Source: a virus. Taken from it: a stretch of DNA of 64,000 nt. The notes below the pieces were generated by a model that had not been told where the DNA came from, did no database searches, and saw nothing but the letters and a program-made list of their open reading frames with translations. How positions within the stretch are numbered: position 1 is the first letter of the stretch; the number at the start of each line of letters is the position of its first letter. A program made the translations under genes and the position numbers. Shown here in pieces: positions 11,892 through 59,884 of the stretch. The stretch covers positions 1 to 64,000 of IMG/VR virus record IMGVR_UViG_3300014834_000367. One strand, given 5' to 3'.

Positions 11892-13136
11892 ATGGCCGAC
11901 ATTTCAAAATTACTTTCAGCTAATAACATTGCCTTAGAAAAGCAAGCTTCTGATATTTTTTCTGCACAGGTAGATGAATTTGGCAGAATGCAGATTGGAA
12001 AAAAATTAGGTAATATAGGCAAACCTGAAGCTGGACCAAATAGTGTAACGCCAGGGGCTTTAGCTACAAATTTAAGAAATAATGGTTTTCAATCATCTCT
12101 TTATGCTTCAGAGATGGTTAAATACGCGCCAAAGCATCGCTTTCTTTTTAAAGTTGAATTCACATTTGCTCCAGCTTATCAAAAAGTTGGTCAAGATGCT
12201 CGAAAAGTTTTTGAATATGCCGTCAAGCAGATTGATCGCCCAACAATAACATTTGACTATGAAGAAGTCAATTTTTACAATTATAGAACTCAGGTATTAA
12301 AAAGAATAAATTATCAACCGCTGAACATGGAATTTTATGATGATCAGCAGAATGAGGTATTATCCTTTTTTGAAGAATATCGCCGAGCTCATTCCCCGAT
12401 GGCCAGAATGAAAACCCTGAATAGCCCTGCGGCTTTCTCACCACAGAATTTTCAAGAACAGGGTATGAATTTTACGAGCCCAAATGATCGTTATACTGGG
12501 AATTATTACGCGGCTTCTTCCGGCCATCTAGCGTATCGTGATGGCGGGGCGCAAGAAATGGTGTATTTGGAAAAACTAAAGATTTATCAAATTTTCCAAA
12601 ATGGTATGAAAACTAACGTCTTCACTTTTTTAAATCCAAAAATTCAACTATTCGATTTGGATGATGTTGACGCCGAAGGCGGCGCCGGCAACGTGATGAG
12701 GGTATCATTCATATATGATGCCTTATCAATTGATATGGTTTCAACCGAGCAGGCTGGTATAAAAAATTGGTCAGCTCTTGACTTAAATGGCGGCGGCGAA
12801 ATTTATGGGCCACCAGCTCCATCGCCAACGGCAGGTCCCGATAAACCGCCGGGTCCATTAACGAATTTGGCTCTCGGCATTGGCAAAAAGATTGCTAACA
12901 CTGTTGCTAATACCGCCATTTCAAACGCCGTCAATAAAGTTAAACTGCCAAGCCAATTACCTGGCGTTGAAGCCACGACAAAAAGAATTGGGCAAAATAT
13001 TTTAGGTACTGCGGTCTCCGGTAAAATCAATCAGACATTCTCTAAAACGAATCCTGGTGTTGCGGTAGATAGCGCCGGAACTAATCCCACTAAAGTTCAG
13101 ACTTCTGGTCCTGGGCCAAACATTCAATCCTATTAA
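11892..13136 (+). CDS. Tail-tube-like protein (tube initiator/baseplate junction, gp19/gp54-like)
   Basis: PKHRFLFKVEF, VKQIDRP...NFYNYR...INYQPLNMEFYDD tube-fold motifs; Pro/Gly-rich tail. Confidence 0.65.
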   Translation: MADISKLLSANNIALEKQASDIFSAQVDEFGRMQIGKKLGNIGKPEAGPNSVTPGALATNLRNNGFQSSLYASEMVKYAPKHRFLFKVEFTFAPAYQKVGQDARKVFEYAVKQIDRPTITFDYEEVNFYNYRTQVLKRINYQPLNMEFYDDQQNEVLSFFEEYRRAHSPMARMKTLNSPAAFSPQNFQEQGMNFTSPNDRYTGNYYAASSGHLAYRDGGAQEMVYLEKLKIYQIFQNGMKTNVFTFLNPKIQLFDLDDVDAEGGAGNVMRVSFIYDALSIDMVSTEQAGIKNWSALDLNGGGEIYGPPAPSPTAGPDKPPGPLTNLALGIGKKIANTVANTAISNAVNKVKLPSQLPGVEATTKRIGQNILGTAVSGKINQTFSKTNPGVAVDSAGTNPTKVQTSGPGPNIQSY

Positions 13137-13149
13137 ACATTTTTAAAAT

Positions 13150-13179
13150 CCGTAAAAATATTTTACTTTTTACGGTTTT
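13150..13179 (+). terminator. Probable terminator hairpin
   Basis: CCGTAAAAA...TTTTTACGG-TTTT. Confidence 0.5.
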
Positions 13180-54716: not shown

Positions 54717-54792
54717 ATTACTTGACTTTTGTTTATCTTTCTAATATTGATGATATAATTGTTCCTACATATTTTTGACGAGGAATTCTAAG

Positions 54793-55293
54793 TTGAAACG
54801 TGCACTTAATTTGAACACTGCGATATCTAGTAATATATCTAACGCCCATGATGGAATTTTTGGAGACACATCCCGTATAACCGGCGATGTATCACGCATA
54901 ACTGGAGACACATCCCGTATAACCGGCGATGTATCACGCATAACTGGTGATGTAACCCGCATCTTCGGCGATGTATCTGGCATTTCGGGTGACGTGTCTG
55001 ACATCTTTGGCTATGTATCTGGCGTCTCAGGCGACGTATCCTATCTCGCGGGCGATGTATCTGGCATTTCGGGTGACGTGACCCGTATCTCAGGTTATGC
55101 TTGTGGAATCTATGGAGATGTCTCTAATATCTACGGAGATGTATGTTGCATCTTTGGAGATGTATCTGGTCTCTCTGGCGATGTAACTGGCGTGTCTGGC
55201 AATGCAAGCGGAATTGTTGGCAACATTGACGATTGCGAAATATCTGATGAAGACAGGAAAAAAGGAATTGACATCAGAAAGCTGCGCGCATAA
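54793..55293 (+). CDS. Heptad (GDVSxIx) repeat beta-solenoid protein 1
   Basis: GAGGA RBS before TTG 54793; about 18 heptads; C-cap DDCEISDEDRK. Confidence 0.8.
   Translation: MKRALNLNTAISSNISNAHDGIFGDTSRITGDVSRITGDTSRITGDVSRITGDVTRIFGDVSGISGDVSDIFGYVSGVSGDVSYLAGDVSGISGDVTRISGYACGIYGDVSNIYGDVCCIFGDVSGLSGDVTGVSGNASGIVGNIDDCEISDEDRKKGIDIRKLRA
54861..54947 (+). repeat. 42-bp perfect tandem duplication
   Basis: TGGAGACACATCCCG...ATAAC at 54861 and 54903. Confidence 0.9.
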
Positions 55294-55297
55294 AGTT

Positions 55298-55326
55298 GTT
55301 TACATTTCTCATATGTATGGTATAAT
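55298..55326 (+). promoter_or_regulatory. Early promoter
   Basis: GTTTACA -N16 with TG- TATAAT. Confidence 0.7.
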
Positions 55327-55370
55327 ATGTCTATTGACTAATTAACCTGCAACCTGCTTGGGGATCTTAA

Positions 55371-56096
55371 ATGAAACGTCGCTTAACTAAAATTAGCTCA
55401 AATCAGATTATTGGCATGCATGATGGCATCCATGGTGATGTCTCTAACATCTCTGGTGATGTCTCCAACATCTCTGGTGATGTCTCTAATATTCGAGGCG
55501 ATGTCTACGGCATCCACGGCGATGTCTCCGGCATTCGCGGAGATGTCTCCAAAATTCGTGGCTATGCCTCCGCCATCTCTGGTGATGTCTCTAATATTCG
55601 AGGCGATGTCTACGGCATCCACGGCGATGTCTCCGGCATTCGCGGAGATGTCTCCAAAATTCGTGGCTATGCCTCCGCCATCTCTGGTGATGTCTCTAAT
55701 ATTCGAGGCGATGTCTACGGCATCCACGGCGATGTCTCCGGCATTCGCGGAGATGTCTCCAAAATTCGTGGCTATGCCTCCGCCATCTCTGGCAATGTTT
55801 CAGGCATGTATGGGAATGTTTCCAACATCTCCGGTAATGTCTCCAACATCTCTGGCTATGTCACCGATATGCGTGGCCATGTCTCCAATATACACGGTGA
55901 TGTCTCCGATATCTGTGGCGATGTCTCCAATATCCGCGGCGATGTCTCAAACATCTCTGGCGATGTCTCTAATATCCGTGGAGATGTCTCTAATATCTGT
56001 GGAGATGCAACCGGAATTACTGGCAACATGGATGATTGCGAAATATCTGATGAAGACAGGAAAAATAGAATTAATATTAACGAACTAATTGCATAA
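55371..56096 (+). CDS. Heptad (GDVSxIx) repeat beta-solenoid protein 2
   Basis: About 29 heptads; same N- and C-caps as protein 1. Confidence 0.85.
   Translation: MKRRLTKISSNQIIGMHDGIHGDVSNISGDVSNISGDVSNIRGDVYGIHGDVSGIRGDVSKIRGYASAISGDVSNIRGDVYGIHGDVSGIRGDVSKIRGYASAISGDVSNIRGDVYGIHGDVSGIRGDVSKIRGYASAISGNVSGMYGNVSNISGNVSNISGYVTDMRGHVSNIHGDVSDICGDVSNIRGDVSNISGDVSNIRGDVSNICGDATGITGNMDDCEISDEDRKNRININELIA
55469..55792 (+). repeat. 105-bp perfect tandem repeat x3
   Basis: Units start at 55469, 55574 and 55679; each is five heptads. Confidence 0.95.
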
Positions 56097-56156: not shown

Positions 56157-56513
56157 ATGCGTTGGAGTTTATTTCTAGATGATATTAGACATCCAAAAAC
56201 GCGAAGCCCATATGGCGGATGGGTGGTTGCTAGAAGCTTCGATGAAGCAATTGTCGCTATAGTTACATTAGGCGCCCCGTCTTTCATATCATTCGATCAT
56301 GACCTTGGCGAAGATGTTCCAACTGGAATGGATCTAGCAAAATGGTTGGTTGAAAATGATATGGATAGGACAATCAATCTTCACAATGATTTTTCATTTG
56401 CAGTACATTCAGCAAATCCTGTTGGTGCGGCTAATATAGAAGGTCTGCTTAAACAGTACTTACGAGTTAAACACGTAAACACCATCCATGGAACACCACA
56501 CAAAAAGCCATGA
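56157..56513 (+). CDS. Cyclic-phosphate-processing receiver domain protein
   Basis: LFLDDIR, ISFDHDLG, TGMDLAKWL, VHSANPVG. Confidence 0.8.
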   Translation: MRWSLFLDDIRHPKTRSPYGGWVVARSFDEAIVAIVTLGAPSFISFDHDLGEDVPTGMDLAKWLVENDMDRTINLHNDFSFAVHSANPVGAANIEGLLKQYLRVKHVNTIHGTPHKKP

Positions 56514-56905
56514 CAATAATTTATACCGATACGCGAAAAAAATTAACAAAAAAGCAACAGGCGAAAGCCAAACAAGCTTTTGATAAATATCAACTTGAGT
56601 TTTGCAAAAAGGTTGGTTTAAATGTTGAACAGCTCAAAACAAAACAAAAATTTAAACCAATTGACACGTACTCCTTATCATATCGTGGTCAACACGATAA
56701 AAAGGTATCTATAGATTCTGGAATTGGAATTGCTGCGAAAAGATCCATCATGGATCCAATGGTGTTACAGCGTGAGAAACCAGAAATTGTTGAAGCTATT
56801 AAACAGAAGGCAATGCGCACCGCGCCCCTCTTTAATAAAGGTGGATTGCAGTACATCTCTGATGGTGAAGATTTAACCTCAATTGGAAAAAAGGTGGTAA
56901 GATAA
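56510..56905 (+). CDS. Basic hypothetical protein of T4-like phages
   Basis: APLFNKGGLQYI motif. Confidence 0.65.
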   Translation: MTIIYTDTRKKLTKKQQAKAKQAFDKYQLEFCKKVGLNVEQLKTKQKFKPIDTYSLSYRGQHDKKVSIDSGIGIAAKRSIMDPMVLQREKPEIVEAIKQKAMRTAPLFNKGGLQYISDGEDLTSIGKKVVR

Positions 56906-57747
56906 TGGCTAAATTTTTAATGGCGTGGAATCGCGAATTCCAGGTACAAAGTGAAATCAATCCTTGGATGGTCGGCAATAAACAACAAGTTAATCCGATT
57001 GTTGCAGCTACACAATGGGAACAACTTGTTTCAACGCTTTATGATTGCGGCGCACAGATTTCTTTTATGAATTTTGCAGATAAAAGTATTCCAGATATCG
57101 TGTTCACCGCAAATGCCGCTGTTGTCGTCAACAAAAAAGTTTTAATTGCAAACTTTAGACATCCCGAACGGAAGAGGGAACAAGGGTATAATTTTAATCA
57201 TTTTTCAAATGGCATGTTGCTCGAATATAAAGCAATCACGGTGCCTCAAAAACACATTAGTTTTGAAGGCGCTGGCGACGCGCTATTAGACAATAAAGGT
57301 CGACTTTTCATGGGCTTTGGCTTTAGGTCAACACTTGGCGCAAAGCAAGAACTTGAACTCGCCTTCCCTGAAGTTTTAGTTAGGCCACTCCAGCTTGTTG
57401 ATCCACGCTTCTACCATTTAGATACTTGCTTCTGCCCTCTTGAAGGAGCCAATGGAGAGACAGCAGTCATGTACTATCCTGGCGCTTTTGATGAATATGG
57501 CAATTATGTAATTCACAATTGCTTCGATAACATCATCGAGTTAACCGAAGATGAAGCAACGGTTTTCACTTGCAACGCAGTTCAGGTAAAACAGAATATT
57601 GTGTTAAGCGAATGTTCTCAACGGGTTGAAAATGAACTTGCCAAATTTGGCCTTAAAGTACGACGTACGCCTTTAAGTGAATTCATGAAGTCTGGCGGTC
57701 AAGCGAAATGTTTAACGCTGAGAATTGATCAGATGTTCTCAGAGTAA
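56905..57747 (+). CDS. Amidinotransferase / dimethylarginase-family enzyme
   Basis: INPWM, PDIVFTAN, FEGAGD, FYHLDTCF, KSGGQAKCLT. Confidence 0.88.
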   Translation: MAKFLMAWNREFQVQSEINPWMVGNKQQVNPIVAATQWEQLVSTLYDCGAQISFMNFADKSIPDIVFTANAAVVVNKKVLIANFRHPERKREQGYNFNHFSNGMLLEYKAITVPQKHISFEGAGDALLDNKGRLFMGFGFRSTLGAKQELELAFPEVLVRPLQLVDPRFYHLDTCFCPLEGANGETAVMYYPGAFDEYGNYVIHNCFDNIIELTEDEATVFTCNAVQVKQNIVLSECSQRVENELAKFGLKVRRTPLSEFMKSGGQAKCLTLRIDQMFSE

Positions 57748-57825
57748 ATAGGAACGCAGCTCCACTATGGTTTGAGGCCTGGTCATAGCCAGCGTAGCGA
57801 ATATGGCGACACAAGTTAGGGAGCT

Positions 57826-57854
57826 TTTACTTTTCTCCATAAAAATGTTATAAT
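57826..57854 (+). promoter_or_regulatory. Early promoter
   Basis: TTTACT -N17 with TG- TATAAT. Confidence 0.65.
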
Positions 57855-57883
57855 CTTTTTATGGATCCTATTAGGAGATATTA

Positions 57884-58252
57884 ATGAAGATGAAAGGAAT
57901 TTCAGAAGCACGTGCAGTTGAATATTCATTCACTGTTAAAGAGTGGGATGGCAATGAACCAGATGACGACACATATCTCGAACCATTTGATGTTGAAGTC
58001 ACATATGAGGTAGAAGACCTAACCACAGCTCATCCATATGGCGAAGGTTCTGCTGTTGAAAGAATTTATGATCTTGGCGTAATTAGTATGGAAACGGTAG
58101 ACCCAGTGAGTTTGTTTGATGCTGACACTGAAGAAGTCATTGAAGTTTTCCCGGCAGGCACAGATGTTCGTAAAATTCCTGGCTGGACGGATGACCATGA
58201 GGAATGGTTCTATGACGCCGCTGTAGAACATTACGAAAAACATGGACGATAA
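57884..58252 (+). CDS. Highly acidic hypothetical protein
   Basis: AGGAG RBS, D/E-rich. Confidence 0.7.
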   Translation: MKMKGISEARAVEYSFTVKEWDGNEPDDDTYLEPFDVEVTYEVEDLTTAHPYGEGSAVERIYDLGVISMETVDPVSLFDADTEEVIEVFPAGTDVRKIPGWTDDHEEWFYDAAVEHYEKHGR

Positions 58253-58394
58253 TTTTTTCATTGAACATGATACATGTTTTGAAATTAAAAATTACACGCC
58301 TATTATAGAGAAAGACGATAAAGGAAATATCATAAGTATGATTTGTTGTCCTTACATACCTAAGATATTTCCTGATGATCATGAAGCAAAGTGA
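58242..58394 (+). CDS. 50-aa hypothetical ORF ending within the tmRNA-like duplicate
   Basis: Manual translation MDDNFFIEHD...PDDHEAK*; weak RBS. Confidence 0.4.
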   Translation: MDDNFFIEHDTCFEIKNYTPIIEKDDKGNIISMICCPYIPKIFPDDHEAK

Positions 58395-58436
58395 AAAGTG
58401 TTCTGGACGTGGGTTCAACTCCGCCCGGCTTCACCA
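58381..58436 (+). repeat. Diverged copy of the tmRNA acceptor piece (T arm to ACCA)
   Basis: 50 of 59 positions identical between 58381-58439 and 59010-59068. Confidence 0.85.
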
Positions 58437-58448
58437 TAAGGAAGTGTG

Positions 58449-58652
58449 ATGACTATAGACGATCTGAAATATATTTTTAAGGCACAGCTTGATTCAGATA
58501 TTCCTGATGTTTTATTGTGGTTTATGTTGACCGACGGTGAGCATAATCTAATAGAACGACATTCATCTGATGACTTAGAAGGTCTATTGCCCATGTTGAG
58601 TAGTTTCCAATATGTAGGCAAAGCGGCTGATGTTCCAAGATTCGTCAAGTAA
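58449..58652 (+). CDS. Cassette 1 ORF, 67-aa hypothetical protein
   Basis: TAAGGAAG directly after ACCA; followed by a tmRNA 5'-end-like motif. Confidence 0.7.
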   Translation: MTIDDLKYIFKAQLDSDIPDVLLWFMLTDGEHNLIERHSSDDLEGLLPMLSSFQYVGKAADVPRFVK

Positions 58653-58666
58653 GTTTTTCTTATGAT

Positions 58667-58703
58667 GGGTCAGTCATGGTTTCGACTCCCGCCATCTCCA
58701 CCA
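58667..58703 (+). repeat. Fused tmRNA 5' end and 3' end
   Basis: GGGTCAGTCATGGTTTCGAC runs directly into TCCCGCCATCTCCACCA. Confidence 0.85.
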
Positions 58704-58715
58704 TAAGGAAGTATA

Positions 58716-58895
58716 ATGAATTGTCCAAAATGCGGAACTGAAATGAAGTTGGGTAGGGCTATAGATCCAATTGAGGAATCAAATTGTCATTATTTTGCTC
58801 CTCAACCTTTGATTAACAGTGAAACGTTACGACTCATTGATGTTCTAAAATGCCCTAAATGTGGGCATTCAGATGACGAATTAAATTCTTTATGA
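58716..58895 (+). CDS. Cassette 2 ORF, 59-aa zinc ribbon protein (not in the ORF track)
   Basis: MNCPKCGTEM...KCPKCGHS; TAAGGAAG RBS directly after ACCA. Confidence 0.8.
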   Translation: MNCPKCGTEMKLGRAIDPIEESNCHYFAPQPLINSETLRLIDVLKCPKCGHSDDELNSL

Positions 58896-58896
58896 T

Positions 58897-58931
58897 GCGC
58901 CTGTCATGGTTTCGACATGACAAAGTGCAAT
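58897..58931 (+). repeat. Diverged copy of the tmRNA 5' end
   Basis: GCGCCTGTCATGGTTTCGAC versus GGGCCTGACCAGGTTTCGAC at 59140. Confidence 0.8.
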
Positions 58932-58999
58932 AGCGCGCCATAACCCTCGATAAGCTGGGAAACGAAGCTTCAGATGCATTTTATTTTTAATAAATAAGT

Positions 59000-59326
59000 T
59001 TATGGTCGTATGAAGCAAAGAGAAAAGTGTTGCGGACGGCGGTTCGATTCCGCCCGGGTCCACCATAAAACACACTAACAAAATGGGTTCAATTCCCTGC
59101 TATTTAGTGTGGGTCACGGAAGCTAGTGTGTTTTATAATGGGCCTGACCAGGTTTCGACGGAGCAAAGAGTATCTGAGTGGACGATTCGGCAATGCGAAA
59201 GCCGTTAGGGTTGGGGTCACCCGGCCGAAGAAGCAAAAACCGTAGAAGCAAACGACTCTACATTCGCTCTCGCCGCGTAAGTGGCAAGCTGAGGCTTACT
59301 GAAAGCCAAGAAACAGAAAAATCAGT
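59000..59326 (+). ncRNA. ssrA: Circularly permuted (two-piece) tmRNA; tag ANDSTFALAA
   Basis: Acceptor piece with GGCGG-TTCGATT-CCGCC and CGGGTCC-ACCA (to 59065); intervening segment 59066-59139; coding piece from GGGCCTG 59140 (G3-U70); tag 59248-59280; pseudoknot GGCTT-ACTGA-AAGCC/TCAGT; TAAATA at 58991. Confidence 0.93.
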
Positions 59327-59356
59327 ACGGGACCGCAAGCGGTCCCGTTTTATTTT
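59327..59356 (+). terminator. Intrinsic terminator of tmRNA
   Basis: ACGGGACCGC-AA-GCGGTCCCGT-TTTATTTT. Confidence 0.9.
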
Positions 59357-59367
59357 AGCAGACATGA

Positions 59368-59396
59368 TTTACAACAAGCAAAAAGTAGTGTATAAT
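59368..59396 (+). promoter_or_regulatory. Early promoter
   Basis: TTTACA -N17- TATAAT. Confidence 0.7.
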
Positions 59397-59425
59397 AATC
59401 ATATACAAACTCATTGGGATTAATC

Positions 59426-59884
59426 ATGCTTAAGATTCTTGCAGCGTTCTTGATGATCTATGCAATGACAACTGCCGTGGCAGCAGCAGAGACTTATCAT
59501 AGGAATGATGTTAGATTATACGCCGAATCAGCATATTTGTCTGCTTGTACTATTCTCCTTAAGAGATTTGAACCAAGCAATTCAGACACTATCGTAAATG
59601 AATCATGCGTTTCTAGATTGTTCAATTCACCAGAAGAATTAAAAGCTGGAATTTTTAAAGATGCCACAGAATCTTCCGAAGGACCATTCACCGTAATTCA
59701 GGCAACAAATGTCGCGCGCTTTTACTTCGCTTTCGCTTGTGTAGATTTAGTAATGGTCGCAAATGAAAAAGAATACCAACAAAATAAAGCCAGTTATGAT
59801 GATCAGTGCGCAGATATGGCCATGAAGATGGTTGGCGAAAATACCACAGTTAAATGGTTCAATAAACGTAAAGGATCATTATGA
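59426..59884 (+). CDS. Secreted helical protein with four cysteines
   Basis: Signal peptide ending AAA; four Cys in two similar halves. Confidence 0.7.
   Translation: MLKILAAFLMIYAMTTAVAAAETYHRNDVRLYAESAYLSACTILLKRFEPSNSDTIVNESCVSRLFNSPEELKAGIFKDATESSEGPFTVIQATNVARFYFAFACVDLVMVANEKEYQQNKASYDDQCADMAMKMVGENTTVKWFNKRKGSL

Follow-up and report, generated by a model that had tools for sequence, protein, structure and literature searches.

The window analysed here, the first 64 kb of the 97,763-bp IMG/VR virus record IMGVR_UViG_3300014834_000367 (37.8% G+C), carries an intact, circularly permuted transfer-messenger RNA (tmRNA) gene preceded by two small open reading frames (ORF1 and ORF2), each of which lies between partial tmRNA ends. 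Our comparison with related loci shows that the tmRNA spacer of many uncultured phages, i.e., the segment between the acceptor and coding pieces of the split gene, is a swappable slot for small genes, and one that, to judge from the sequences compared, appears able to outlive the surrounding RNA gene. The locus in the window is itself probably what remains of three tandem permuted tmRNA copies, two of which would have lost their bodies and left behind two orphan spacer genes that would be co-transcribed with the tmRNA. Since genes for a tail sheath, a large terminase and a helicase are all encoded in the window, where almost every gene is on the plus strand, the source is a large myovirus. CheckV puts the completeness of the 97,763-bp record at about 29%, which suggests a genome of about 300 kb.

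Anatomy of the tmRNA locus

The intact copy is a plain member of the circularly permuted two-piece tmRNA genes. ARAGORN calls it at 58973-59371 with the tag (VE)ANDSTFALAA, and it scores well above threshold with the Rfam models RF04321 (107.7 bits, threshold 47) and RF01850 (99.4 bits, threshold 84). Here, GGGCCUG pairs with CGGGUCC at 7/7 positions, including the G3:U, the T stem GGCGG/CCGCC is complete (5/5), and cofolding of the two pieces gives the canonical tRNA-like structure at -22.3 kcal/mol. The tmRNA's own intrinsic terminator at 59327-59348 is the sole terminator-like site on the plus strand within 57700-59600. A T-arm-like sequence, GGGTTCAATTCCC, is found at 59085-59097, inside the non-coding spacer of this copy. 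T-arm-like hairpins also occur in several other non-coding spacers of phage tmRNAs, some of them adjoining the 3' stem strand, and spacers of the latter kind look like a small tRNA-like molecule themselves.

Upstream of this gene are two partial tmRNA-end units with one small ORF each and near-identical flanks, whose layout and coordinates agree with those given in a preliminary description of this DNA (Table 1). The ACCA ends are at 58436 and 58703, each directly followed by TAAGGAAGT, and the flanks as a whole, ACCA-TAAGGAAGT ... TTCTT(T)ATGAT-G, are nearly identical in both units. The 3' flank reads TTCTTATGAT and then GGGTCAGTCATGGTTTCGAC in unit 1 (G at 58667), and TTCTTTATGAT and then GCGCCTGTCATGGTTTCGAC in unit 2 (G at 58897). 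In both units, the ACCA is followed by a stem strand that bears the Shine-Dalgarno (SD) sequence, with the start codon 11-15 nucleotides (nt) after the ACCA (TAAGGAAGTGTGATG, TAAGGAAGTATAATG), and each ORF ends in or just before the 3' strand ..TTCYTTATGAT, which abuts the 5' acceptor G. The stop of unit 1 is a TAA 14 nt before the spacer end, as also found (at 13 nt) in the intact relatives L216, L258 and L267, and in unit 2 the TGA in the stem serves as the stop, a single nucleotide short of the spacer end and former RNase P site. Moreover, the closing stem that the preliminary description had drawn around the SD sequence was confirmed, as CAUAAGGAAG can pair with the 3' flank, the stem having 10 bp in the first unit and 9 bp in the second when G-U pairs are counted. 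In unit 2, this stem is present in both the minimum free energy and centroid folds.

Three repeat families make up the locus, these being a 59-nt copy of the acceptor piece, three 43-nt copies of the T arm and ACCA, and three 40-nt copies of the 5' end, which correspond to the TTATGATGGG..GGTTTCGAC segment. The acceptor-piece copy at 58381-58439 is 85% identical to 59010-59068, and with RF00023, positions 58379-58436 align as the 3' end of a tmRNA (E 2e-7). The second body remnant shares 69% identity over 81 columns with the start of the L216 body. In the whole 97,763-bp contig, GGTTTCGAC is present three times and TAAGGAAGT twice, and because every occurrence is at this locus, a chance origin of the flanks is excluded. 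More conspicuously, there is a fusion junction at 58678-58703, where a 5' acceptor strand and GGTTTCGAC are directly continued by a T-arm 3' half and ACCA. The point of fusion is TTCGAC, a word common to the tmRNA 5' region and the T loop, and the only RF00023 alignment of 58629-58703 is as a tmRNA whose entire interior is deleted (7.7 bits).

Farther upstream, the strands of the hairpin that precedes the first remnant resemble the spacer closing stem, and this hairpin may, going by that resemblance, be a further tmRNA remnant. A 50-codon ORF at 58242-58394 overlaps the stop of a 122-amino acid (aa) gene, crosses the hairpin and ends within the first tmRNA remnant; it could be a further decayed unit or else a gene extended into tmRNA debris. 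No relatives of the 122-aa protein were found in IMG/VR.

Table 1. Features of the tmRNA locus, by position in the window
Feature	Position	Strand	Description
Hairpin upstream of first remnant	58322..58373	+	strands AAAGGAAATATC.. / ..GATATTTCCTGATGAT; inverted repeat I2, 19-nt arms, 89% complementary
Remnant acceptor piece 1	58381..58436	+	P2 strand, T arm, 3' acceptor strand, ACCA; T stem 3/5
Spacer cassette 1	58437..58666	+	SD-bearing 5' strand TAAGGAAGT, ORF1, 3' strand TTTTTCTTATGAT
ORF1	58449-58652	+	67 aa from ATG; predicted small alpha/beta fold
Remnant start, tmRNA body 1	58667..58686	+	5' acceptor strand GGGTCAG and GGTTTCGAC region, ends at GAC; acceptor 5/7 with 58425-58431
Remnant acceptor piece 2	58687..58703	+	only T-arm 3' half, 3' acceptor strand, ACCA; fused to preceding GGTTTCGAC at TTCGAC
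Spacer cassette 2	58704..58896	+	TAAGGAAGT, ORF2, 3' strand TTCTTTATGAT
ORF2	58716-58895	+	59 aa; CxxC..CxxC zinc ribbon
Remnant start, tmRNA body 2	58897..58975	+	GCGCCTG, GGTTTCGAC, ~20-60 nt of decayed P2/downstream sequence; acceptor 4/7
Acceptor piece of intact two-piece tmRNA	59004..59065	+	T stem 5/5, acceptor 7/7 including G3:U, encoded ACCA
Spacer of intact tmRNA	59066..59139	+	74 nt, non-coding; closed by stem TAAAACACACTA / TAGTGTGTTTTATA (inverted repeat I1)
Coding piece of intact tmRNA	59140..59352	+	5' acceptor strand GGGCCTG; tag frame (ANDSTFALAA) ends 59280, then stop

The tmRNA spacer as a gene slot in related phages

To identify relatives of the locus, we searched IMG/VR in two ways; all scans of this collection are samples, and the counts of loci and units from them are lower bounds. 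One set was motif-based, from an exact search with the flank CACCATAAGGAAGT and then with TCCACCATAAGGAAGT. Many matches to TCCACCATAAGGAAGT are the CCA end of permuted tmRNAs called by ARAGORN, which are unusually long genes (430-740 nt). The other sample comprised loci picked by a 24-nt word of the tmRNA body, and is hence independent of spacer type. Among 120 motif matches in bacterial and archaeal genomes, none was a tmRNA.

At least 63 external units share one layout, in which the spacer (intervening segment) of an intact permuted tmRNA encloses a single ORF of 30-133 codons. On the 5' side, the T arm, acceptor strand and ACCA are followed by TAAGGAAGTTT(R)ATG, and on the 3' side (A)AGTTTCYTTATGAT is followed by GGGCCTG and the tmRNA body. 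The stop in most of these units is the TGA of TTATGATGGG, placed 1 nt before the predicted RNase P site, and the proteins that use it end in -VSL, -DSL or -IFL. The remaining units stop at a TAA 13 nt upstream, as in the mode of unit 1 in the window. All eight loci tested passed RF04321 across the ORF-bearing spacer, with 69-136 bits. With the two ORFs of the window counted, the cargo falls into at least 28 families, one of which is a thioredoxin (PF00085, E 4e-21, 75 bits). In four families, the ratio of nonsynonymous to synonymous differences per site (pN/pS) is 0.14-0.21, and by this measure the cargo is real coding sequence under purifying selection.

The body-word sample gave at least 121 units and at least 90 unique spacers of 29-340 nt. 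Here, of the 26 spacers that reach 120 nt, 25 have a spanning ORF, about 18 shorter ones hold SD-led micro-ORFs (22-38 codons, several of them hydrophobic), and the others are non-coding hairpins like the third spacer in the window. For the closing stem, we fixed the register as the CA of CCA and the first 11 spacer nt against the 13 nt that precede the boundary between AU and GGG. Among 48 distinct 5' strands in this sample, stem pairs 3-13 are 95% paired, whereas shuffling the partners gave 66% (never above 72% in 1000 shuffles) and sliding the register 50-63%. Given this excess over both the shuffled and slid controls, the stem is a real, covarying feature of the precursor, and the 5' strand of this stem also serves as the SD sequence where the spacer bears a gene.

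Moreover, we noticed that an identical cargo type can be found on different T-arm and body types, and that a single backbone occurs with many different cargos. Between units with the same backbone and different cargo, identity is 94% in the last 14 spacer nt, 86% in the acceptor piece and 66% in the body, and this pattern of sequence identity fits an exchange of cargo by recombination at or near the conserved ends. The preliminary description had regarded tmRNA ends as modular cassette borders, and had suggested looking in relatives for CCA-TAAGGA-ORF-TTCTTATGAT-GGG units that differ in number and cargo. In fact, the spacer does act as an exchangeable slot, whose cargo varies and moves among backbones while the flanks are conserved and covary, but among the loci listed there is a single slot in each relative, with no variation in the number of units.

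The design of the slot suggests how it might work. A leader/trailer stem of about 13 bp closes the spacer between the CCA of the acceptor piece and the GGG of the coding piece, with the 5' strand providing the SD sequence (TAAGGAAGU) and the 3' strand the last codons, usually with the stop (..UUAUGAU, then GGG). In intact members of the family, ribosomes would load on the SD sequence before the 3' stem strand is transcribed, and a ribosome terminating at the stop in the stem would cover the RNase P site. The stem, and hence maturation, would then form only on ribosome-free RNA.

Two other contigs with a tmRNA deserve mention. In L054 (minus strand), a tRNA-Thr precedes the tmRNA, with a long perfect hairpin between its CCA end and the start of the acceptor piece (~13000-13150 of the reversed locus), and leader/trailer stems seem to act as punctuation within the tRNA-tmRNA clusters of these phages. 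A GOLLD RNA (RF02032, 160 bits) is found at 10928-11336 of L055, a 286-kb viral contig that also has a tRNA array and a tmRNA with a gene-bearing spacer.

As for the two genes in the window, ORF1 falls into one family (family 2) with spacer ORFs from the intact tmRNAs of L216, L258, L267 and L290, and a second spacer family, which uses the other stop mode, is its more distant kin. The differences between ORF1 and its relatives are mostly synonymous (pS 0.70, pN 0.29). Its predicted fold is a confident one (predicted local distance difference test score of 91), with no significant match in the PDB (best E 0.08, to a beta-grasp-like fold) and no Atlas neighbours. ORF2 has homologues at 51-70% identity, retains all four cysteines and 15 invariant columns, and is recorded as an identical protein (P0001) from 23 contigs. 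Pfam and PHROG gave no function for ORF1 and ORF2 beyond the zinc ribbon of the latter, and tblastn found no homologues of either in GenBank phages. Kinship to the spacer cargo of intact tmRNAs is established for ORF1 only, ORF2 being a singleton among 65 units. Where the context of an ORF2 homologue was visible (identity of about 50% or lower), the homologue is an ordinary small phage gene outside any tmRNA, and the last codons of ORF2 (..NSL, stop) are supplied by the 3' stem strand of the slot; together, these observations fit the capture of a free-standing gene into the slot. A distant zinc-ribbon gene of the ORF2 family is also found amid the tRNA genes of a nine-tRNA phage array (L539, 2501-2659), some 35 nt downstream of a tRNA-like 3' end and with tRNA-Leu following about 30 nt later.

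Among GenBank phages, there was no near match to the whole locus. A more distant search of these gave only matches to the acceptor piece, in Stenotrophomonas and Xanthomonas phages with non-coding tmRNA spacers. These cultured phages (Menderavirus in the case of Stenotrophomonas) have the same type of tmRNA as the window, again with non-coding spacers. In one of them, Xanthomonas phage BUDD (L538, ON758385.1), ARAGORN finds an unannotated permuted tmRNA at 877-1328 of the locus, and a 'hypothetical protein' coding sequence is annotated over its acceptor piece.

Origin of the array and its surroundings

In the account that we favour, and consider probable, three tandem tmRNA genes would have arisen through duplication or have come from unequal recombination with other phages. 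The first two copies, which carry the TAAGGAAGT stem type, would have been gene-bearing; copy 3, the sole intact one, has a non-coding spacer. The body of copy 1 would have been deleted by a joining of its 5'-region GGTTTCGAC to the T-loop TTCGAC of copy 2, and the body of copy 2 would have been lost after about 20-60 nt. With the redundant bodies deleted, selection would have acted only on ORF1 and ORF2, and the remnant tRNA-like stems would have decayed. Both genes would now be ordinary small genes, most likely carried on, and probably translated from, the long 5' part of a pre-tmRNA transcript that ends at the terminator at 59327-59348, and RNase P-type cutting at the remnants would presumably no longer take place.

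The upstream units lack the tmRNA body and tag, and Rfam gives only a truncated 3'-end match (23.5 bits). In unit 1, the acceptor pairs at 5/7 positions and the T stem at 3/5, with the canonical two-piece fold at -5.2 kcal/mol. In unit 2, which is without the 5' half of the T arm and so has no true T arm, acceptor pairing is down to 4/7 and the canonical fold to +0.2 kcal/mol, as against -22.3 kcal/mol for the intact copy. Among the external units parsed, the acceptor is 7/7 in 61 of 63 and the T stem 5/5 in all 63. Taken as wholes, the upstream units also show no gain in folding over shuffled sequence (z -0.98 and -0.14). These findings bear on a proposal of the preliminary description, namely that the tmRNA ends act as tRNA punctuation and still serve as tRNA-like signals, at which RNase P and 3' trimming would free ORF1 and ORF2 as small mRNAs with paired ends. 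Admittedly, both units retain the CCA and G starts, the closing stems of 9-10 bp, the SD sequence, the start spacing, the reading frames and the stop positions, and in intact members the placement of the stop, a single nucleotide away from where RNase P is predicted to cut, points to a coupling of translation with processing. Nonetheless, with the acceptor and T stems degraded in both units and kept in functional relatives, we consider working punctuation to be rather unlikely. What the preliminary description had offered as its fallback, the decay of a duplicated locus with imperfect acceptor stems, is the better account of the array itself.

Decay by itself, in which the upstream region would be dead DNA from old tmRNA duplications and both ORFs unexpressed, is quite improbable. 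The tmRNA-derived parts are clearly decaying, and the array is unique among the loci listed. However, ORF1 and ORF2 are intact, with the SD sequence and start at the fixed distance of the family, and the mostly synonymous changes and confident fold of ORF1, along with the retained cysteines and invariant columns of ORF2 and its identical occurrence in 23 contigs, all argue against dead DNA. We regard an assembly artefact, whereby strain variants that share tmRNA ends and differ in spacer cargo were strung together, as exceedingly improbable. The contig is metagenome-derived, and in this family numerous spacer variants that differ little in their flanks do co-occur. However, identity among the three copies is no higher than 58-85%, the junction shares just 8-9 nt, which is far below assembly k-mer sizes, and the remnants bear decay mutations of their own.

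Among the 165 loci listed, the window is the only one with more than one tmRNA body start (it has three), and the other 164 are single-unit loci. The junction word GGTTTCGACTCCCGCC gave only chance matches in coding DNA elsewhere, with no tmRNA junction among them. L005, which has two motif matches 267 nt apart, the spacing seen in the window, was considered as a second array and rejected, as the match is a chance one in a repeat-protein gene. It is unlikely that the fragments of tmRNA ends were kept as working borders for stacking spacer genes, with the stems or the fused minihelix-like junction still directing RNA cutting or recombination, in which case the array would be a cassette system in the course of expansion or else an exchange of cassettes between co-infecting phages caught midway.

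We also weighed a site-specific cassette array, in which a recombinase encoded elsewhere would add spacer cassettes serially at the T loop or CCA end of the tmRNA, like tRNA/tmRNA islands or an integron. The fragment from T loop to CCA at 58687-58703 is what the duplication of an att site at a tRNA-type gene leaves behind, and cargo is indeed shuffled among backbones. However, no match to the integrase and resolvase families PF00589 and PF00239 was found in the 97.7-kb record, although a recombinase gene could lie in the rest of the genome, as this record is only about 29% complete. In particular, PF00589 gave no IntI-type tyrosine recombinase by the array, as would go with an integron, and unlike a tmRNA (ssrA) island or CIME, the repeats include tmRNA 5'-end sequence fused at TTCGAC. 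The left side of the junction is thus itself tmRNA (5' acceptor strand and GGTTTCGAC), for which deletion between tandem genes is the simpler explanation, and on these grounds the integrase/att model was rejected. With relatives that all have one unit, the serial addition of cassettes is very improbable, and the integron-style array of the preliminary description found no support. Overall, then, neither working tRNA punctuation nor an integron-like mechanism is likely.

Several points weigh against the duplication-deletion history that we prefer. Neither a second array nor another fused junction was found among the IMG/VR loci examined, and this history rests on one locus. The spacer flanks of copies 1 and 2 differ in stem type from copy 3, whose stem is of the TAAAACACACTA type that is common among non-coding spacers, and these copies are not simple recent duplicates of copy 3; their acquisition by recombination with other phages must therefore be assumed. 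The conservation of the 5' flank in the motif-based set is partly by construction, this set having been found via the word TAAGGAAGT. Lastly, the fused junction can be folded as a small hairpin followed by UCCACCA, which also speaks for punctuation, and to go by this predicted fold, some residual processing may take place there.

Of the genes around the locus, two adjoining ones at 54775-56096 contain extended stretches of GDVSxIx heptad repeats (172 and 241 aa), across which the opposite strand is open as well. The gene at 56157-56513 codes for 118 aa with a match to the cyclic-phosphate processing receiver domain cREC_REC (PF20274, E 3e-24; phrog_1479). About 1 kb upstream of the tmRNA locus is a DDAH/amidinotransferase-like gene (56905-57747; PF19420, E 2e-13), of which a homologue is found in five IMG/VR contigs (L120-L123 and L162) that have a permuted tmRNA with a short non-coding spacer 0-2 kb downstream. 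Beyond the window, ARAGORN calls an unusually long (93 nt) tRNA-Pro(TGG) at 94829-94921 of the same contig, and another T-loop-like word is found at 94507.

Relation to known systems and significance

Circularly permuted two-piece tmRNA genes have been described previously (Keiler, Shapiro and Williams, 2000; Sharkady and Williams, 2004, as cited in PMC9004378), with the OM43 phage Melnitz providing a phage example (PMC9004378). The published contents of tmRNA spacers include a tRNA-Ala gene and a repetitive element (PMC11915505, a database paper), and our full-text literature search found no published description of protein genes in them. Like other permuted tmRNA genes (RF04321, RF01850), the intact copy has an acceptor piece, a stem-closed spacer and a coding piece, along with an encoded CCA, the G3:U and a tag ending in ..ALAA. 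Unlike published ones, however, the spacers of the window and its relatives hold selected protein genes, with the SD sequence and stop inside the stem, and the window keeps two spacers after the loss of their tmRNA genes.

Among systems with a comparable layout, the fragments left by ssrA genomic islands (Islander, PMC4383910; PMC4131195) likewise have partial tmRNA ends that flank foreign genes beside an intact tmRNA. Here, though, the locus is a phage one with no integrase found in 97.7 kb, and the enclosed DNA is a tmRNA spacer rather than an island. Moreover, instead of the simple displaced 3' ends of such islands, the window has fragments in which a 5' acceptor strand, together with the D-like region, continues into a T-loop 3' half. 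In integron arrays, promoterless small ORFs also stand in a row between short imperfect inverted repeats, and the cargo varies between relatives. In contrast, no IntI-type integrase was found in the 97,763-bp record, the relatives are single-slot, and the borders derive from a stable-RNA gene.

In T4-type phages, small conserved regulatory stem-loops flank variable small ORFs in the so-called PeSL cassettes and are thought to promote modular shuffling. As with our slot, these are short, structured and conserved borders of swappable small phage genes, and probably act as anchors for recombination, but the borders in the window are the processing stem and ends of a tmRNA, and the gene is inside an RNA precursor. 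In tRNA punctuation, as known from mitochondria and from phage tRNA arrays with small ORFs, tRNA-like structures border coding segments as well (compare L539), but those of the two orphan units can no longer form. Group I introns of tmRNA and tRNA genes that carry homing endonuclease genes (PMC11915505) also place a protein gene in a segment removed from a stable-RNA precursor. Unlike these, the tmRNA spacer is not self-splicing and is removed by end-processing enzymes, and its cargo consists of diverse small proteins rather than endonucleases.

Although tmRNA spacers are treated as disposable, in many uncultured phages they form a conserved slot for the expression of varied small proteins. 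With both the ribosome-binding site and the stop inside an RNA-processing stem, a single transcript would be messenger and stable-RNA precursor at once, and the fixed geometry of the slot makes a coupling between translation and RNase P directly testable. Gene callers and tmRNA annotators each miss half of such loci. The window is the first case found of spacer genes that persist after the deletion of their tmRNA gene. Such orphans would give a route from slot gene to ordinary gene, and the array may be a snapshot of cargo exchange.

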